34,274 nt of DNA from a virus. Below the pieces are notes generated by a model that made no database searches, was not told the DNA's origin, and saw only the letters and a list, made by a program, of their open reading frames with translations. Location: the IMG/VR virus record IMGVR_UViG_3300035102_000071. One strand, written 5' to 3'. Shown here one piece after another: positions 1-34,274 of this stretch; within the stretch, counting starts at the first letter, position 1, and each line of letters starts with the position of its first letter. Both the position numbers and the translations under genes were made by a program.

Positions 1-265
1 CTCTCTGGACCTGGAAGGCACCGGCATCACCTCGCTGCCCGACAACCTGACCGTGGGCGGCTCTCTGGACCTGGAAGGCACCGGCATCACCTCGCTGCCC
101 GACAACCTGACCGTGGGCGGCTCTCTGTACCTGCGCGGCACCGGCATCACCTCGCTGCCCGACAACCTGACCGTGGGCGGCTCTCTGTACCTGCGCGGCA
201 CCGGCATCACCCCGCTGCCCGACAACCTGACCGTGGGCGGCTATCTGGACCTGGAAGGCACCGGC
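1..265 (+). repeat. 60-bp tandem repeat array, part A (about 4.4 units, continues from the window end)
   Basis: Units at 1-60, 61-120, 121-180 and 181-240 are identical except at three codons plus one T>C at 212. The fifth unit decays after about 265. Confidence 0.95.
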
Positions 266-727
266 AGCACCGATACGTCAAGCGTCAATCGCAACGCGCC
301 GTCGATGCTGACGTGGCAAAATGGCCGTTACATCCTGGCCGATGATATCTTTTCCGAGGTCGTGAACAAACGCGGCGGCGTGTGGAGGTTGAAAAACATA
401 GGCAAGAGCGAGATCGTCTATCTGGTGACTGACGGCGAAGGCCGCTACGCGCACGGAAAGACCATCAAGGGTGCCCGCGAAGACCTGATTTACAAGATCG
501 CTGACCGCGACAAGTCTGCATACGAAGGGCTTGGGCTCAACCATGAATTTACGTTCCAAGAAGCGATCGAGGCGTACCGCGTCATCACCGGAGCCTGCGC
601 AGCTGGCGTCAAGCAATTCGTTTCCAGCCAGGAGCGCAAGGACAAGTACAGCGTGCAGGAAATCATTGGCATTACTAAAGGCCAGTACGGACACGCATCG
701 TTCGCCGAGTTCTTTTCGGCAGCATGA
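2..727 (+). CDS. LRR-like tandem-repeat protein, 3' part (continuation of 33903..34274 across the circular junction)
   Basis: The frame is open from the first in-frame codon. It encodes 20-aa units G-x-L-x-L-x-GTGITSLPDNLTVG, then a roughly 150-aa non-repetitive C-terminal domain (NRNAPSMLTWQNGRYILADD...ASFAEFFSAA). The TGA at 725-727 overlaps the next ATG. Confidence 0.8.
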   Translation, partial: SLDLEGTGITSLPDNLTVGGSLDLEGTGITSLPDNLTVGGSLYLRGTGITSLPDNLTVGGSLYLRGTGITPLPDNLTVGGYLDLEGTGSTDTSSVNRNAPSMLTWQNGRYILADDIFSEVVNKRGGVWRLKNIGKSEIVYLVTDGEGRYAHGKTIKGAREDLIYKIADRDKSAYEGLGLNHEFTFQEAIEAYRVITGACAAGVKQFVSSQERKDKYSVQEIIGITKGQYGHASFAEFFSAA

Positions 728-1272
728 TTGATAGTAGGCAGACCATGACTCTCACTTGTCCACGACCAGCCTCCACGCCCTACCACGTAAGGGGCAAAGA
801 CACGAAATGTGAGTGGCTGACGCCACCCGAAATCATTCAGGCGCTCGGTCCGTTCGACCTAGATCCGTGCGCTCCGGTTGAGCGCCCATGGGCAACCGCT
901 GAACGGCACTACAGCATTTTGGACAACGGCCTCTTGAAGTCGTGGATGGGCCGCGTGTGGCTCAACCCGCCCTATGGGCGTCAAGCCGCTGCATGGATGG
1001 AGAAGATGGCAAAGCATGGCAACGGAATCGCCCTGACTTTCGCCAGGACCGATACGTCCATGTTCCACGATCACGTTTATCCATACGCCTGGGGGCTGAT
1101 GTTTATGCGCGGTCGGCTCGCCTTCTGCAACGTTGACGGGACCAGGGCCGAAGCTCGAGCGGGCGCACCGTCAGTCTTGATTGCATACAGCGAAGCGGAT
1201 CTCGCGGCCATCAAGTCGAGCGGCTTGGATGGTCGGGCGATTGGATTAAAGGATGGAGGCTCAAATGCGTGA
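724..1272 (+). CDS. Phage Dam-type DNA N6-adenine methyltransferase
   Basis: It has the NPPY motif (VWLNPPYG) and the WLTPPEII...FDLDPCA N-terminus typical of the phage Dam family. Its start forms an ATGA overlap with the upstream stop. Confidence 0.85.
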   Translation: MIDSRQTMTLTCPRPASTPYHVRGKDTKCEWLTPPEIIQALGPFDLDPCAPVERPWATAERHYSILDNGLLKSWMGRVWLNPPYGRQAAAWMEKMAKHGNGIALTFARTDTSMFHDHVYPYAWGLMFMRGRLAFCNVDGTRAEARAGAPSVLIAYSEADLAAIKSSGLDGRAIGLKDGGSNA

Positions 1273-6463: not shown

Positions 6464-9400
6464 TATTTGCCCCCTGTGAGCGCTGTGGCGCGTTCTGTCT
6501 GTTTATTGATAACCCTATCCCGCAAATCTGGGAACTCTGCTAACATGCGGTCCTGTGCGGCTAAACGGTAATCGCCGATAACGCCCTTGATAACCTCTGA
6601 CTGTAATCCGTCAGGGCCGCTGCTCATATTTTTGAACCCAGGCTGTCCAACGATAGCTTTCAATTCCTCGAAGGCCGGTTGCCCGGCGAGTTCGACGTAT
6701 CGTGAATACTCCTTAGCCGTCAGCTTGACGCCCTGGATTTGCTGCCTTGGCATGGACACGCTGGTCTTGTTGTCCAGTATGGCCTGGTCTACCTGGTTCG
6801 GGTTGTCCGCACTGGCATAAATAGGGGACATGGCATCATATGCCCATCCGATCCTCGAGGCCCTATTGATGTCCCGGCCCCAAAGGTCTTTGCGGGGTGG
6901 CAAGTCCTTCGAATAGCCGGGGACTCTCGACCGGAATTCGTTGGTGATGGCCGCGAGGTATTCGCGGACCGGTTCGGAGATGTTGGGCATATCGGCCACC
7001 AGGGGATCAGCCGCGCTTGTTCGCGTCTGCCTAACCATAGGGTCAAGGGCCTGTGCTACTTGTCTGGTGAGAGAGCTGTATGGGATGAGACTGCCCGCAA
7101 ACTTGAGCAGCCACTTGTCTGGCGTCATGGTCGGGTTTCTGGGGTCCATCGCGCCTATCGCGTCGTACAGCCCTTGAAGGTACGTTTTGCTGGCAAAATT
7201 TTGCGCGAATGCAACAGCCCCGGCAGACACCAAGCGGCCACCTTCTTCTTCATCCAATTGAGAAATTATTTCCGTGATATCGGCTGAAAAACCAATGAGG
7301 GTCCCTATCGGGTCCAGACGGTTGTAGGCGTACCACTTATCTCCGATTTTAAGCGAATACGGCCGCCATCCCTGACGGCGCAAGGATTTTACCTGCTTAT
7401 GATCAGCCGGTCCGGCGCCGGACACCAGCCCGTCAGCGGCGAAATCGCCGACAGTCAACATCAGAGCAGAACCAGAGAGGACCTTGGCCCACGCAGTAGC
7501 TGCCGAGGCACCGCCTTTGCGTATGTCAGACCTTACAGCCCTGGAGGCAAAAGCCAGAGGTGTGCGCTCAAATGTGTATTTGAGTATATTCGCCGGAGTG
7601 CGCATGAAAGGCATGATAAATTTGCCCCCTGGGACTTTGCTGACCAGCCGTTGCAAGGCCTGTCCACGCTCGCCCAACGGGCGCGTAAAGGTCTGATAAC
7701 CGGCGAAGTCGACCCCTTTGTTAATAAGATCATCGGTCGGGTCCAAAGTGAGGTCGGCAATCCGTTCTGCGAGTTCTTTGCCTTCTAGCCCCTCGGACAC
7801 AGCCTGTCGGTACGCCTGCGCGTTGACCTCCATGCGGTATCCGATAGACTTAAAAAGGGAGTCGGTGCGATTTAACAAGCTGCCTGGAGCATTGATAAAC
7901 TTCCCCGAGTAATCAAAAAATTTGCCCCACGCCTTGGCCGGGTCGACCCCAAACGCCTCAGCACTGATGGCGTCTGTATACCCTTCAATCTTGCTGAACT
8001 GCTCAAACACGTCGGCAAGGCCTTCGACCCCTTCGGCCTTCTTGCCTAGGGCAAAAAGTTTTACCCCATCGCGAACGCCCTTCGTGAATCCATACGCCTG
8101 TGCCGCGACTTCCCCGTACTGTATTTCGCCGCGATAAAACACATCCGAAATAGCGGCGGAAAGGTATTTTTCAGGGATAGCCCAGAGAGCGGTTACGCTG
8201 TTCGAGAGCGCGTTGACAAGCTGTGTTTTTGGGCTTGATAGCAAACCGTTAATCCAAGTCTGATAGAATGCATCGCCAAGCTTGGACTTCATGCTCTTTT
8301 GAATTACGAGATTCAACCCTGTGGGGTTGTCCGCTACTTGGACTATGGCCCTTGCCAGTTGCCCGATAGGGGCAGATCCGCCGCTGGAATTCATCAATTG
8401 ATGGATTGCCCCGGCTCTCATTTCGTCAGTACCCGCGGGGATAGCCCATGAACGCAAAGCCCTTGCCGTTTCTGTCCTGGCAGCGAACACTTCGCTCTGA
8501 ATCGCGGAGTGGACGGCCATTGCCCGTCTAAAATTATACATGTCCGCTTTAGTCGCGGAGGGAGAAGAGGCAATCCTCGCAAGATCAGTCAACTGAGACG
8601 CAGATGTATTCAGCACTTCTCGAGCAGCGATAGCTTCCGGGGCGGACATCGGGCCGGGAGCGCGCCCGAGCAAGTCTTCAAGGTTTGTGTAATGCTCTGA
8701 ACTGGCATCAATCATATCCTCGAAGGACATGCGCCCACCAGTTGCTTTCTGAATATCGGATGATTTCAGTTCTGCCATGTTGCGGATCATAGCCTTAACA
8801 TCATCACCGGACTGTATCCTGGAATAATTGATGAAGACCTGATCTTTCGTCTCTGGAAGAACTTCAAACCCCATAGCCTGTTTAACTTCGTCTTCCATTT
8901 GTTTGACACGCAGCACAGCCGCTTCTTCTTCCGACACGGCGGACAAAACCTTAGCCTCTGTGGGCTGTACTTGCCTTATGGCTACATAATCTTCATCCGG
9001 GCGACCGAGACCGGCGGTTATTTCGTCCTCTGCGACAGGCTGTATAAATTCCTTTGCCGAGTCTTCAATGGCATCCTTAGCGGCCTTGTCAGCAGGAGTG
9101 ATGCCTAGATCAGCGGCCTCGAGTTTCAACCGGCGTTGCGCCTTGTAATACTTGAAAGCCCTGCCCAGCCCCTCAGTGGCGATACCAAGGCCAGCCCCTT
9201 CAAGGACGTTCTTCATGCGTCCTTCCCAGGCACTTTGATTCTCTGGATTGGTGTCAGCCAGGTAATCGGGGACGATAGCACCAAGCGCCGGGACTTCATT
9301 CAGGAAGGTGGACAGACGCGCCTCGAATGGATCAAAGGCGACAGCGTCGGCAATCGCGCCAGCCGTCATGGACTGTAAGACAGCACCACCCACACCGAGA

Positions 9401-28100: not shown

Positions 28101-28428
28101 ACTGCTCCTCCTCGGTGTCGAATCGCTTGGACAACCTGTCCAGGTAGCACCGCGCCTGGTCCTCGCTCAGAGCGACCTCCGGGAGGACGGCCAATCCGAG
28201 GGCAACATCCCAGTCAAAGCCGGACTCCGCGAAAATATTTGGCAACGTCACCGGCTGTCCGATCTCGTACAGGGCACGCATGGCCTCGAAAATAGGCCAT
28301 GCCTCGCCGGTGGAGATGAATGCCAGACCGTCGGCCTCGGGAATCAAGTGTGGGTTTTGCCACAGGCCGGACAACGCCCACATGCGCAGCTCGGACAAGC
28401 TGATTGCGTCGATGATGCTACGCCTCAT
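28087..28428 (-). CDS. Helical protein resembling a DnaB N-terminal domain (113 aa)
   Basis: I trimmed it to ATG 28428, because the 159-aa track form overlaps the organiser gene by 149 nt. Its 3' end overlaps the helicase start by 14 nt. The domain call is tentative. Confidence 0.5.
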   Translation of the reverse strand: MRRSIIDAISLSELRMWALSGLWQNPHLIPEADGLAFISTGEAWPIFEAMRALYEIGQPVTLPNIFAESGFDWDVALGLAVLPEVALSEDQARCYLDRLSKRFDTEEEQYAVA

Positions 28429-29230
28429 ACTTGCCCTCGATGACCTTGTTGAAATTCGTGGGCCGTACCAGCCACTCCAGGTCGGCCTGGAAAGGGGCCT
28501 TGCCTTCGCACCCGTCGACCAGCCCCATGAGAAACGGGCATCCACGGACGTACTCGAAGAACCCACGCCACCAATCCAGGCTTTGCCGTTTCTGCTCCGA
28601 CTTCCATCTTGCCCTCAGCAATTTCTCTCGATTGGCATCCCAAACGCGTACCTTTCTGAGCTCCGGCAAGACCTCGTGATAAAGTGCGATGATTTCCTGG
28701 TGAGGGCAGCGAGGAGGTCCGGCAGACGAAGTCTGTGGACAAGTACCCGTTAGGGTACTCTCTTCTTCTTCCGGAGAGGGAGAGGGAGAGGGAGAGGGAG
28801 AGGGAGAGGGAGAGGGGGCATTGCTACAATGTGCTTGTGGCATGCTCGTAGCATGCTCGGAGCATTTTTTAGCTTTGCCCCAACGTGCTTGAGCAGCCTT
28901 CTTAGCTTTGGCTGAACGCTCTTCTGCATGGGCCGCGTAGGCGTTGTGTTCTGCCCACCCGTGAATGGACAAGACGCCGTTTTCATCTTCATCGAGCAAC
29001 CCGATAGAGACAAGTATCTGCACAAATTCGTGGGGATCATCTTGCCAGTTGGCATCAAGGGCTATGTCCTCGGCGTCCATGCCGTGCAAAACGCCTTCCG
29101 GCCGCGTCTCGGCAACCATGAGCATCAGGTCAATGAACGCGAGAACTCCTTCTGCCCCAAGCCTGAGTTGCAACTTTTTCCGCTTCCTGTGGTCGCGGAA
29201 TGACGTTTTGATGCGAATATCATAGTTCAC
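28418..29230 (-). CDS. Replisome organiser / replication initiation protein
   Basis: The N-terminus (LRLGAEGVLAFIDLMLMVAE) and the C-terminus (CPHQEIIALYHEVLPEL...WWRGFFEYVRGCPFLMG...FQADLEWLVRPTNFNKVIEGKYE) are typical of phage replication organisers. GTG start with a GGAGG RBS. Confidence 0.75.
   Translation of the reverse strand: MNYDIRIKTSFRDHRKRKKLQLRLGAEGVLAFIDLMLMVAETRPEGVLHGMDAEDIALDANWQDDPHEFVQILVSIGLLDEDENGVLSIHGWAEHNAYAAHAEERSAKAKKAAQARWGKAKKCSEHATSMPQAHCSNAPSPSPSPSPSPSPSPEEEESTLTGTCPQTSSAGPPRCPHQEIIALYHEVLPELRKVRVWDANREKLLRARWKSEQKRQSLDWWRGFFEYVRGCPFLMGLVDGCEGKAPFQADLEWLVRPTNFNKVIEGKYEA
28774..28815. repeat. Hexanucleotide microsatellite (GAGAGG)x7 inside the organiser gene
   Basis: Seven perfect units. 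On the minus strand they encode a (Pro-Ser)n linker followed by EEEE. Confidence 0.95.
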
Positions 29231-31255: not shown

Positions 31256-32080
31256 ATGAACCCCGGCATCTATACCGACATGACCAACGAGGCATACCAC
31301 GCCGAGCGGTCGGCAGTGTCCAACTCGGGCATTAGCAAGTTGGTCCAGAGCCCGGCCCACTTCCGCGCGTACCTGGATGAAGGGTTTTCCGAAACCCCAG
31401 CGTTGATCTTCGGCCGCATCGCTCATGAGGCCATCCTTGAGCCGGATCGGTTCGCCTATGCCGTAGCCCCGCAGGTAGACAAGCGTACAAAGTCTGGGAA
31501 GGCCGAGTGGGCGGACTTTGAAGCTGAAAACGCGGACAAGCACATCCTGACCAGCGACGACGAGAAGGCCATTCTGAGGATGCGCGACAACGTGTATGCC
31601 CACCCTGCCGCCAAGGCAGCTCTAACAACATCCAAGGGCCGCGCCGAGGTGTCCGTGTTCGGATACCAGGGAGATCAGTCTGGAGAACTCTGCAAGTGCC
31701 GTCCCGACTTCTGGCGCGACGACAACATCATCGTTGACCTCAAGACCACGAACGACGCAGGGCCGCACGAGTTCAACCGCTCCGTGTTCAAGTATGGCTA
31801 CCACCGGCAAGCGGCCTTCTATCTCAACCTATGCAGCCGCGCCAAGGCCGAGAAGCAAGAGGCGTTCATCTTCATCTGCGTGGAGAAGACGACGCCCTAC
31901 GCTGTGGCCGTCTACATGGCTGACGCAGAAATGATCGAATATGGGCGCTGGCAGTACGAACGCGCCCTGCTCACCCTGGCCGAGTGCAAAATCAACAATT
32001 ACTGGCCTGGCTACTCGGAGAAGATCGAAACTATTTCTCTGCCCGCCTGGGCAAAGAAGCAAATGGAGGACGCAGCATGA
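31256..32080 (+). CDS. PD-(D/E)XK exonuclease (RecE/YqaJ-like recombination exonuclease)
   Basis: YTDMTNEAYHA...SNSGISKL N-terminus and the IVDLKT catalytic motif. ATGA coupling to the recT gene. Confidence 0.8.
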   Translation: MNPGIYTDMTNEAYHAERSAVSNSGISKLVQSPAHFRAYLDEGFSETPALIFGRIAHEAILEPDRFAYAVAPQVDKRTKSGKAEWADFEAENADKHILTSDDEKAILRMRDNVYAHPAAKAALTTSKGRAEVSVFGYQGDQSGELCKCRPDFWRDDNIIVDLKTTNDAGPHEFNRSVFKYGYHRQAAFYLNLCSRAKAEKQEAFIFICVEKTTPYAVAVYMADAEMIEYGRWQYERALLTLAECKINNYWPGYSEKIETISLPAWAKKQMEDAA

Positions 32081-32961
32081 CTAATGTACCCGCCAATCAT
32101 TCGGATACCATCGCCGGGTTGCTGGCCAAGCAGGCCCCGGCAATCGCGAGGGCAATCGGTGGGCTAAGCCCTGCCGAGCAGCAAAAGCGTGCCGAGCGAT
32201 TCACCCGCGTTGCCCTGACAACCATCAGGAACAATGAAGGATTGATGAAGTGCAACCCACAAAGCGTCATGGGGGCGCTCATGCACTGCGCGAGCTTTGA
32301 CATGGAACCGGACGCACGCGGTCTTGTGTGGCTCGTCCCGTACAAGGGCGAGGCGCAGTTCCAGCTCGGATACAAGGGGATGATTGAACTGGCTGTCCGG
32401 TCGGGCGCGGTCAAGTCAATCCGGGCCGAGATCGTCTATGAGTCCGAAGTCGAGGCTGGGATGTTCGAGTACCATGGGGGTACCGAGCAGACCATCAGGC
32501 ACGACATCGATTTTTTAAAGCCCGAACTCCGTACCGGGAAAGTGGTCGCGGCCTACGCTGTGGCCGACATGTCCAACGGGACAAAAGCACTGGCCGTCAT
32601 TGACAGAGCTCACATCGAGAAGAGGCGCAAAGCTAGCCAGAGCGCAAGCAGCAGCTATTCCCCGTGGCAGAAGTGGACCGAGGAAATGATCAAAAAGACG
32701 GCCATCAAAGAACTGTGCCGCACTCTCCCGCAGTCCATCGAAAAGCTCCACCGCGCCATTGCCCTGGACAATGAATACGAGGCCAGAGTCATCGCGTCCA
32801 AAGATGCACCAGGCCAGAGCCTCGACGTAGAAACCCTCAACGCCAAGATCATGGGCGAGCAGAAGGACGAGCCCATCTGCCCCATCACCGAGGCACCGGT
32901 CAACGTGGACGACTGCGTGGACTGCGAAGAGGCAAGATCCTGCGCCAGCAAGGCCGCATAG
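32077..32961 (+). CDS. recT: RecT-family single-strand annealing protein
   Basis: LVPYKGEAQFQLGYKGMIELAVRSGAVKSIRAEIVYE is the RecT core. I chose ATG 32077 (GGAGG 7 nt upstream) rather than the track start at 31984. Confidence 0.85.
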   Translation: MTNVPANHSDTIAGLLAKQAPAIARAIGGLSPAEQQKRAERFTRVALTTIRNNEGLMKCNPQSVMGALMHCASFDMEPDARGLVWLVPYKGEAQFQLGYKGMIELAVRSGAVKSIRAEIVYESEVEAGMFEYHGGTEQTIRHDIDFLKPELRTGKVVAAYAVADMSNGTKALAVIDRAHIEKRRKASQSASSSYSPWQKWTEEMIKKTAIKELCRTLPQSIEKLHRAIALDNEYEARVIASKDAPGQSLDVETLNAKIMGEQKDEPICPITEAPVNVDDCVDCEEARSCASKAA

Positions 32962-33337: not shown

Positions 33338-33902
33338 CAACCTACTGAACGATCTTTTAATTTTGCTCCGGGTCAGGAGAAAAACCCCATGCCGTGATTG
33401 GTTAGAGCCGCGTCACGACATGCAGGGCGGCGCAACCACAAGACCAACTCATTGGAGCAAAACAAGTCCCGGCTTTGTCCGGGCAGCTTGAGCAAAGGGG
33501 CCGCTCGCCGGTAAGGGCGTGTCAATACCTCGGCAGATGATGGTCACGCCGCCCCAGCTTAAATTTGATCTTTGACAATCGATGTTTTGAAGGAAGGCGG
33601 CGGCGTGGAAAGCTGGGGGAATTTTGTGTGCCCCCTGGAGACACGCAACTGCATTGGGGAGTAAAGGTGGCCTCTGTACCCACCGGCATAAAGTCGACGA
33701 GCCAATGTGGTCACTTGGGCAGCATTTGAGCCGGAGTAGCGCCCGGCCCGCCTTCCCCCAAAGCACCGAAGGACAGAAGTTCGAAGGTCGGTGCCTCCTG
33801 CGGTCTGGGTGGTCCAGGCCGTTGGAACAGTCCCTCGGAGGGGCGGCGCTTTTAGAGGTTTATCTCCGCGCCGCCCGGAAACAAACGAATGGAGAAACGG
33901 AA
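33338..33902 (+). ncRNA. ORF-free, GC-rich, stem-rich region: candidate structured RNA or long structured 5' leader (unclassified)
   Basis: No plus-strand ORF exceeds about 23 codons. I found at least six GC-rich stems (33463-33490, 33545-33607, 33615-33635, 33666-33684, 33763-33794, 33841-33876). It is the largest gap in an otherwise overlapping-gene genome. Confidence 0.35.
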
Positions 33903-34274
33903 ATGAAGGCAATACTCGACGGAAGCCATCTGGTTATTGACGGCGAGCGTTTTGATTTGGGCGGCTCTCTGTACCTGCGCGGCACCGGCATCACCTCGCT
34001 GCCCGACAACCTGACCGTGGGCGGCTATCTGGACCTGGAAGGCACCGGCATCACCTCGCTGCCCGACAACCTGACCGTGGGCGGCTATCTGGACCTGCGC
34101 GGCACCGGCATCACCTCGCTGCCCGACAACCTGACCGTGGGCGGCTATCTGGACCTGGAAGGCACCGGCATCACCTCGCTGCCCGACAACCTGACCGTGG
34201 GCGGCTCTCTGGACCTGGAAGGCACCGGCATCACCTCGCTGCCCGACAACCTGACCGTGGGCGGCTCTCTGGAC
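33903..34274 (+). CDS. LRR-like tandem-repeat protein, 5' part (continues in frame at the window start)
   Basis: GGAG (33891-33894) lies 8 nt before ATG 33903. MKAILDGSHLVIDGERFDLGG is followed by 20-aa units. There is no stop before the window end. Confidence 0.8.
   Translation, partial: MKAILDGSHLVIDGERFDLGGSLYLRGTGITSLPDNLTVGGYLDLEGTGITSLPDNLTVGGYLDLRGTGITSLPDNLTVGGYLDLEGTGITSLPDNLTVGGSLDLEGTGITSLPDNLTVGGSLD
33961..34274 (+). repeat. 60-bp tandem repeat array, part B (5.2 units)
   Basis: Units start at 33961, 34021, 34081, 34141, 34201 and 34261. They are identical outside three codons. Confidence 0.95.

Follow-up and report, generated by a model that had tools for sequence, protein, structure and literature searches.

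Near-identical leucine-rich repeat units that vary at three codons in a phage early gene

How does a viral gene come to carry tandem repeat units that are the same at almost every base and that differ, where they differ at all, at the same few codons? The question is raised by IMG/VR virus record IMGVR_UViG_3300035102_000071, a stretch of 34,274 nucleotides that was analysed whole and that we refer to as “the window”. The window is a complete circular podovirus-like phage genome whose assembly was closed inside a 60-nt tandem array. The gene that contains this array encodes a short leader, a series of 20-residue repeats of the leucine-rich repeat (LRR) type, and a conserved C-terminal domain (C-domain) that is shared with many other phage and prophage proteins. 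Here, we describe the variation between the repeat units, compare it with the variation in related arrays, and weigh the ways in which it may have arisen. The answer that we lean towards, with confidence a little above even, is that concerted evolution of the units is combined with diversifying selection on the binding face of a phage early protein.

A repeat gene closed across the ends of the window

In register, each unit of the array reads GGC GGC xxx CTG xxx CTG xxx GGC ACC GGC ATC ACC TCG CTG CCC GAC AAC CTG ACC GTG, where xxx stands for a variable codon. Differences between units are confined to codons 3, 5, and 7, which read TCT or TAT, GAC or TAC, and GAA or CGC, respectively. If units are named by the residues at these codons (i.e., by their “triads”), four types occur in the window: SDE, SYR, YDE, and YDR. 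The sole exception to the rule is a T>C change at position 212 (S>P), which sits in the last SYR unit of the array, and the number of synonymous differences among the units is 0. The 44-nt scaffold GGCACCGGCATCACCTCGCTGCCCGACAACCTGACCGTGGGCGG is found nine times in the window, eight times exactly and once with the T>C change at 212, where shuffled sequences are expected to contain 0 copies. Thus, the array shows high internal conservation (HIC; repeats at least 80–100% identical within one gene), with one scaffold base differing. An earlier reading of this DNA, made from the sequence only, had described units identical in DNA apart from the three codons and the change at 212, had found no synonymous difference, and had listed the same four types; the in-register layout and the scaffold counts confirm it on all of these points.

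Tandem Repeats Finder places the 60-nt array at both ends of the window (1-271 and 33958-34274, with 94–95% matches). The window begins and ends with the same 70 nt, and this overlap falls within the array; because of this terminal identity, we take the contig to be a circle that was closed within the repeat. All parts of the gene lie on the plus strand. The start codon and the 19-aa N-terminal leader, MKAILDGSHLVIDGERFDL, in which no signal peptide is evident, are at 33903..33959. The first part of the array, at 33960..34274, consists of five full 60-nt units (SYR, YDE, YDR, YDE, SDE) plus 15 nt, and its variable triplets begin at 33966, 34026, 34086, 34146, 34206, and 34266. The second part, at 1..265, contributes SDE, SDE, SYR, SYR, and a terminal half-unit, YDE, which diverges after GGCACCGGC; bases 1-70 of this part duplicate 34205-34274. 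The C-domain, of 153 aa, follows at 266..727, with a TGA stop codon at 725-727. In P0003 and other homologues, N-terminal leader, repeat array, and C-terminal domain are held in a single open reading frame (ORF), and the homologous P0003-type leader resembles the window leader at 33903 (MTKATLNGSYLMIDGRRY against MKAILDGSHLVIDGERF). Since homologues such as P0003 have this single-ORF arrangement, the join across the ends is considered real, and the repeat gene reads as continuous across them.

Joining position 34274 to 71 keeps the array in register and gives nine triads, in the order SYR YDE YDR YDE SDE SDE SYR SYR YDE, and a protein of 342 aa; an alternative in-register join, of 34274 to 11, gives ten triads. 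The number and order of units in the window array are not fixed by its assembly. The sequence-only reading had joined 34274 to 2, which counts sequence twice and yields an aberrant unit in which GGSLD runs directly into SLDLE, and we have abandoned that join. Among the 11 positions that it gave for first variable codons, two are redundant (34206 is the same as 2, and 34266 the same as 62).

Several lines of evidence bear on the fold of the repeats. In phmmer comparisons of the array with the sequences of the PDB, the closest solved relative is Vibrio FlrP (8z5u; E = 3.7e-27), and weaker matches are seen to the LRRs of SspH1 and IpaH. Pfam matches to the repeats are borderline: DUF5649, at 25.6 bits, just exceeds its cut-off of 25; LRR_1, at 21.8 bits, exceeds its cut-off of 20.6, yet no single stretch passes; and LRR_4 and LRR_14 remain under their cut-offs. 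The unit, GG-x-L-x-L-x-G-T-G-I-T-S-L-P-D-N-L-T-V, contains the LRR core motif, with L4, L6, T9, I11, L14, and P15 mapping to it. An AlphaFold2 (AF2) model of window positions 2-724, built with 75 aligned homologues, is a regular solenoid with a mean predicted local distance difference test (pLDDT) score of 89.8, in which each unit contributes two short strands, one at the L-x of xLxLx and one at T-V. Foldseek superposes this model on FlrP with a root-mean-square deviation of 1.2 Å over 86 columns and a probability of 1.00. The repeats are predicted to form a 20-residue LRR-type beta-solenoid. The LRR identity that had been suggested earlier is upheld by the sequence similarity to FlrP and to SspH1/IpaH and by the match of the model to FlrP, and the anticipated solenoid is the structure that AF2 predicts.

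The variable codons correspond to LRR positions 3, 5, and 7, which alternate with the core leucines L4 and L6 in a short beta-strand. Because of this alternation, the three positions should point off the core and line one face of the solenoid sheet as three ladders. The idea that the variable residues lie on a binding face, also put forward earlier, agrees with the alternation; that the residues are exposed, and that they bind a ligand, we infer.

Variation among related arrays and how it may arise

The window array is one of many with the same pattern of variation. We compared 34 arrays that have at least four full units each. Nucleotide diversity at the three codons is 0.04–0.56 per site, whereas scaffold diversity lies between 0 and 0.11 for 30 of them, four arrays having no scaffold diversity at all. 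When differences are counted over pairs of units, the variable codons have 1161 nonsynonymous and 25 synonymous differences, as compared with 1018 nonsynonymous and 1306 synonymous differences in the ~17 scaffold codons. Variation spread evenly over the homologues, synonymous sites included, had been named as a refutation of the earlier reading; the variation is not spread in this way, and the outcome favours that reading. As is typical of HIC repeats, each unit has a few hypervariable codons with an excess of nonsynonymous change. The residues used are few. At the first position, the order of frequency is S>Y>D>N>G>W; the second position is almost binary, with D>Y; and at the third, the order is R>S>E.

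Similar toggles are found on other scaffolds that are fused to the C-domain. Some are LRR variants of 19–22 residues, and one, in locus L071, is a 20-residue unit of the form GG[DSY]V[DY]V[RQ].... A quite different 9-residue repeat, SG[DYN][SY][SA]x..., precedes the C-domain in Dulem virus 31 and in loci L074 and L118. The 9-residue and other scaffolds toggle between D, N, and Y and between S and Y. This convergence on unrelated scaffolds argues that selection acts on the role of the residues, rather than that the pattern is a quirk of one sequence. A separate observation concerns the prophage copy in locus L110 (OW818699.1, 1271-2932), where F at position 1 always occurs with Y at position 3 (FLYL versus SLDL); the pairing indicates covariation between variable sites.

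Close relatives differ in the number and order of their units. Loci L010 and L011 are 99.3–99.6% identical over their shared sequence and differ by exactly one 60-nt unit. In L074, a block of five units has been duplicated together with its synonymous markers. In L085, which shares its leader with the window, the triad order is SYR YYR SDR SYR YDE, unlike that of the window, and a synonymous GAC>GAT change has spread to four of the five units. Hence, close relatives are polymorphic in unit number (L010 and L011) and in unit order (the window and L085), as read from short-read assemblies.

The variable codons themselves appear to have two histories. The GAA and CGC alternatives are common to the window, L085, and L003, and because they recur in all three, they appear to be an old shared polymorphism that has been carried along. 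By contrast, the S/Y and D/Y partners within an array nearly always share the third base of their lineage: TCT/TAT pairs were counted 11 times, TCC/TAC pairs 7 times, GAT/TAT pairs 19 times, and GAC/TAC pairs 18 times, with 7 mismatched GAC/TAT pairs. Since the partners match in their third base, the counts indicate that the S/Y and D/Y toggles are recurrent single-base changes that occurred within each lineage. The sequence-only reading had attributed the variation to reassortment of existing variants rather than to drift, which fits GAA/CGC and does not fit S/Y and D/Y. It had also viewed YDR as a recombinant of the other types. We do not adopt this as a necessity: single-base toggles recur on lineage-specific codons, and recurrent mutation under selection explains YDR as well as does recombination between codons that are 3–6 nt apart.

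We propose the following explanation. The product of the gene would be a cytoplasmic early protein that consists of a short leader, an LRR-type solenoid of ~9 units (possibly more), and the conserved C-domain of ~150 aa. Duplication, deletion, and conversion of single or multiple units, through unequal recombination or replication slippage between the 60-nt repeats, would turn the array over, and this turnover would homogenise the scaffold. Selection would retain varied residues at three exposed positions and repeatedly recreate them by single-base toggles, drawing on a small “paratope” alphabet of Tyr, Ser, Asp, and Arg/Glu, such that each phage presents a patterned binding face of its own. 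The solenoid could then be a rapidly changing module that directs the protein to a variable partner inside the cell. The most plausible partner would be a protein of the host or of a competing element (e.g., a defence component), and the invariant C-domain would contribute an activity that stays constant, as an effector or an anchor. None of this would call for dedicated mutagenesis machinery.

A number of points weigh against this explanation. The pair differences given above are not independent events, even though the contrast between variable codons and scaffold is extreme. For the exposure of the three positions, the argument is one of strand alternation and LRR homology. Most of the arrays come from short-read metagenome assemblies, which are prone to mis-ordering repeats, and the order and number of units in the window are correspondingly uncertain (PMC11761791). 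Searched by itself and as part of the whole protein, the C-domain matches nothing in Pfam, NCBIfam, or PADLOC, and its best PHROG hit (E = 0.17) is not significant; a PDB search with a profile of 20 C-domain sequences returned 0 matches at E ≤ 10; and Foldseek comparison of the model with the PDB matched the repeat part only. These searches, by profile and by fold, leave the C-domain unassigned, as it had been at the outset. Finally, a counter-defence role is a guess, made only from gene position and evolutionary mode.

Doubt about the assemblies could be extended to the variation as a whole, with the mosaic of units arising where the assembly took a chimeric route through a collapsed repeat graph or mixed several strains. 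The contig does close inside the array through the 70-nt overlap, about 33–35 of the 80 best IMG/VR loci (L006-L084) end inside the array of the repeat gene, the scaffold of a Dysgonomonas isolate has N gaps within its array, and comparable repeats in fungi cannot be reconstructed from Illumina data (PMC11761791). However, while misassembly can reorder units, it cannot confine their differences to three alternating codons, nor can it make all of them nonsynonymous. At least 34 independent arrays, built on different scaffolds, vary at the same three codons. The pattern is found, too, in cultured phage TJE1 and on a closed 4.1-Mb chromosome (L110) with 19 triad positions, where the 18 full units listed are 100% identical apart from the three codons. 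An assembly artefact is therefore very improbable as the source of the pattern. The arrays nevertheless have practical consequences for sequence catalogues: they break short-read assemblies, their terminal overlaps can pass for circularity, and they leave truncated ORFs (P0001, P0002, and P0005). At the other extreme, such localised variation on an otherwise invariant scaffold might be the work of dedicated mutagenesis, whether by a diversity-generating retroelement (DGR) or by another enzyme that hypermutates the three codons. No reverse transcriptase was found among the window ORFs searched, in agreement with the sequence-only reading, and the window has no template copy of the unit, its scaffold being confined to the array. 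The changes are C<->A, G<->T, and the three-base swap of whole codons GAA/CGC, and so are not adenine-specific, as those of a DGR target would be. A Pfam search of 125 ORFs flanking family members revealed no recurrent partner gene, only generic early-region functions. With no reverse transcriptase or template, no adenine-specific change, and no recurrent partner, a DGR-like or other mutator is the explanation to which we give the least credence.

The remaining alternatives accept the variation and interpret it differently. If the solenoid were merely a spacer or an oligomerisation rod, the three positions would be free to vary under relaxed constraint, and some family members do have diverged, non-homogenised repeats (L005, L007, and L045). 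Relaxed constraint, however, predicts synonymous changes and a broad range of residues, in conflict with the 25 synonymous and 1161 nonsynonymous differences and with the narrow alphabet of Y, S, D, and R; moreover, the same toggles arise on unrelated scaffolds. This makes it a distinctly improbable alternative. Another possibility is a modular code like that of the repeats of transcription activator-like effectors (TALEs), PUF, or PPR proteins. Every unit would recognise a single element of a linear polymer (a nucleotide, peptide residue, or sugar), the triad would determine which, and the whole array would write out a target sequence. The units are nearly identical, and the triads fall into few discrete types: four in the window, with YYR and SDR in addition in L085, and just five over the 19 units of L110. 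A code of this kind was also suggested by Altae-Tran et al. for the LRRs of Dictyostelium, whose di-residues are Y/D-rich (PMC10392669). In addition, the YRVITGACxxG segment of the C-domain resembles a helix-turn-helix in predicted secondary structure, by our own reading. On the other hand, acidic triads (SDE, YDE) are numerous and would disfavour the binding of nucleic acids; the alphabet of triads across the family is larger and looser; neither Foldseek nor the PDB profile search matched a DNA-binding fold; and no LRR is known to read a polymer at one unit per repeat. Overall, we consider a modular code quite unlikely. A related proposal, which is unlikely too, is that these proteins are natural reprogrammable binders, in which the order of the Tyr/Ser/Asp/Arg triads on a rigid solenoid sets the target unit by unit, as a decodable “repeat-variable tri-residue” code akin to the repeat-variable di-residues of TALEs. 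Phages would rewrite this code by shuffling units, and would thereby turn an unchanging C-terminal effector on new targets, in host defence or among other proteins of the cell.

The C-domain family and the genomic setting

The C-domain is ~150 aa long; in the AF2 model, its N-terminal half is beta-rich and its other half helical. Family alignments reveal invariant D, H, and K residues, the motif YRxITGxC, and invariant T and FF. The window protein belongs to this YRVITGAC family, which is defined by a C-terminal domain of ~140 aa with these residues after a repeat module. Two ideas about its fold and activity were set aside: Foldseek matches to profilin and to SH3-like folds occur only at E > 0.3, and a Cys-His-Asp hydrolase, as might be read from the invariant D, H, and C, found no support from the fold. 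The names “E3 ubiquitin ligase” and “SspH2”, which are attached automatically to relatives in BFVD, are not supported, the C-domain being without a Pfam match.

The family is large. A word-indexed search for the C-domain gave 79 clusters, and an exhaustive search gave 916 representatives of 50%-identity clusters at E ≤ 1e-3 (604 at E ≤ 1e-10), with 916 being a lower bound. The C-domain was located at 124 loci in IMG/VR and at 48 loci in GTDB genomes (Bacteroidota, Desulfovibrionales, Clostridia, Terriglobia, Alphaproteobacteria, and others), and the hosts of the phages and prophages span many phyla, Actinomycetota among them. In every match listed, the C-domain is at or near the C-terminus; in most of the members inspected, it is preceded by a repeat module, while a few short proteins begin at the C-domain. 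We found no paper that describes the family.

Several records of family members are of interest in themselves. In Tetrasphaera phage TJE1 (L001, 2650-3420; HQ225832, about 39094-39867), annotated orf51 begins at the C-domain. The frame is open upstream, where it encodes four repeats of the form GG[WG]L[YD]L[RS]SVT[IS]LPEGFNPTV and overlaps the opposite-strand orf50; orf51 is probably mis-called. Dulem virus 31 (L002, PP511318; 35.8 kb) has a replisome organizer, YopX, and ASCH in addition to its 9-residue-repeat family member, yet it is filed under Microviridae, a taxonomy that looks wrong. Some phages carry two or three paralogues of the family, which are adjacent in L053/L054, L060, and L066/L067 and 1–2 kb apart in L045 and L077. 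The repeats of these paralogues are strongly diverged, not homogenised, so that homogenised and diverged forms both occur in the family.

The phage in the window encodes small and large terminase subunits, a head-tail adaptor/portal, a T7-type scaffold, a major head protein, tail tubular proteins, and internal virion proteins, as well as a holin, an endolysin, a replication initiator, and a helicase-like protein. The repeat gene is preceded in the same early operon by an exonuclease VIII-like gene (31256-32080) and a gene for a RecT-like annealing protein (31984-32961), both on the plus strand. It is followed on the plus strand by a gene for a Dam-type N6-adenine DNA methyltransferase (724..1272; PF05869, 1.1e-10; phrog_111, 2.3e-38). 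The TGA stop codon of the repeat gene overlaps the ATG start codon of the methylase as ATGA at 724-727, which suggests that the two genes are co-translated or translationally coupled. A position in early, recombination, or replication regions is common to family genes in every context examined, with ERF, RecT, YqaJ, Sipho_Gp157, Rha, and methylases nearby. Elsewhere in the window, a (GGAGAG)x7.3 repeat at 28773-28816 on the plus strand corresponds to an (SP)7 linker in the replication initiator, which is encoded on the minus strand at 28418-29230.

A Shine-Dalgarno-like GGAG is seen in the sequence at 33891..33894 on the plus strand, 8 nt ahead of the ATG. The sequence upstream of the gene, at 33746..33902 on the plus strand, is 100% identical in an alignment with L085. 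In all, 217 nt (157 nt upstream plus the 60-nt leader) are 100% identical between window positions 33746-33962 and L085 positions 7941-8158. L085 is an otherwise unrelated 24.5-kb IMG/VR contig, and its homology to the window ends abruptly at 33745, suggesting either a mosaic junction or a mobile gene cassette. The conserved segment includes a 9-bp GC-rich hairpin (GGGCGGCGC...GCGCCGCCC, with 33841-33849 pairing with 33868-33876), which lies 15 nt before the ribosome-binding site and is kept in L085. No T-run follows the hairpin at 33841-33876, the fold of the region is non-significant (z = −0.41), and there is no Rfam match; likewise, a promoter/terminator scan gave nothing significant. When 25 kb of the window was compared with GenBank phages by megablast, no match was obtained, and among the metagenome contigs scanned for close C-domain relatives, none exceeded 55% identity. 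Just two close relatives were found, each of them truncated at the array: L085, which matches in the leader and first units, and L086/P0001, whose C-domain is 89% identical.

Comparison with known systems

The sequence-only reading had likened the array to variable lymphocyte receptors (VLRs) and to DGR targets. The likeness holds for the outcome: like DGR variable proteins and lamprey VLRs, the phage array has a diversified surface on a constant scaffold. The routes differ. Lamprey VLRs are LRR proteins that vary at concave-face positions and are assembled somatically from flanking cassettes, whereas the phage variation is in the germline, between units of one array. DGRs depend on a reverse transcriptase and a template repeat and make adenine-specific changes; for the phage array, none of these three was found.

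Closer analogues are the repeats of fungal NOD-like receptors (NLRs) and the variable residues of TALEs. The HIC repeats of fungal NLRs, as in the WD40 repeats of Podospora het-d/het-e, are 80–100% identical, undergo concerted evolution, and have a few hypervariable binding-surface codons under diversifying selection (PMC11761791). These fungal arrays gain, lose, and shuffle units, and they defeat assembly from short reads (PMC11761791). The phage arrays are alike in having homogenised units with a few hypervariable codons. However, the fungal repeats form WD40 propellers in eukaryotic immune receptors, while those of the phage are 20-residue LRRs joined to an unrelated C-domain. Neither Pfam nor NCBIfam detects a NACHT or NB-ARC domain in the phage protein; the likeness is one of evolutionary mode. 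TALEs share with the phage arrays repeats that are nearly identical in DNA, variation in two or three codons per unit, discrete unit types, and an allele-specific order. They differ in having helical repeats of 33–35 residues and a proven code of one repeat to one DNA base, read by variable residues 12/13; with its 20-residue beta-solenoid repeat, the phage protein falls outside the TALE-like effectors.

Other LRR proteins resemble the phage array in part. Hypervariable LRRs of Flavobacterium psychrophilum and Dictyostelium purpureum vary at a few positions on one face, and in Dictyostelium these positions are mostly Tyr, Asp, His, and Asn; Altae-Tran et al., who reported them in 2020, do not describe the phage family or its C-domain (PMC10392669). 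Those proteins differ from the phage protein in being cellular (cell-surface or amoebal) and in having other repeat lengths and domain partners. FlrP, an LRR protein of the polar flagellar rod (PDB 8z5u/8z5w/8z60), has the same 20-residue unit, GxLxLxxTxIxxLPxxLxV; however, it is a secreted, periplasmic structural protein with diverged repeats and without the phage C-domain. The IpaH/SspH/YopM effectors also have short LRRs with an LxxLPxxL variable segment, although their sequence and fold matches to the phage array are weak, and IpaH/SspH carry an NEL ligase domain with a catalytic Cys, unlike the phage C-domain, which matches nothing in Pfam, NCBIfam, or the PDB. The fungal NLR repeats, the TALEs, and the hypervariable LRRs of Dictyostelium and Flavobacterium all belong to other gene families, and none of them is viral.

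The choice of residues has a parallel in protein engineering. In synthetic binders made by Sidhu, Koide, and colleagues, the residues of a minimal code of Tyr and Ser (with or without Asp and Ala) are reportedly sufficient for recognition. These binders are engineered antibody or monobody loops, and the resemblance to the dominance of Tyr, Ser, and Asp (with Arg) in the phage arrays is an analogy only. If the variable face does track host proteins, the arrays would be a marker of arms races between phages and their hosts, and a natural source of compact LRR binders with a Tyr/Ser/Asp code. Phages are known to diversify their binding proteins by two routes, retroelements (i.e., DGRs) and the swapping of tail-fibre modules. 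A third may be the one described here, in which an intracellular early protein carries homogenised repeats whose few hypervariable sites are under selection.

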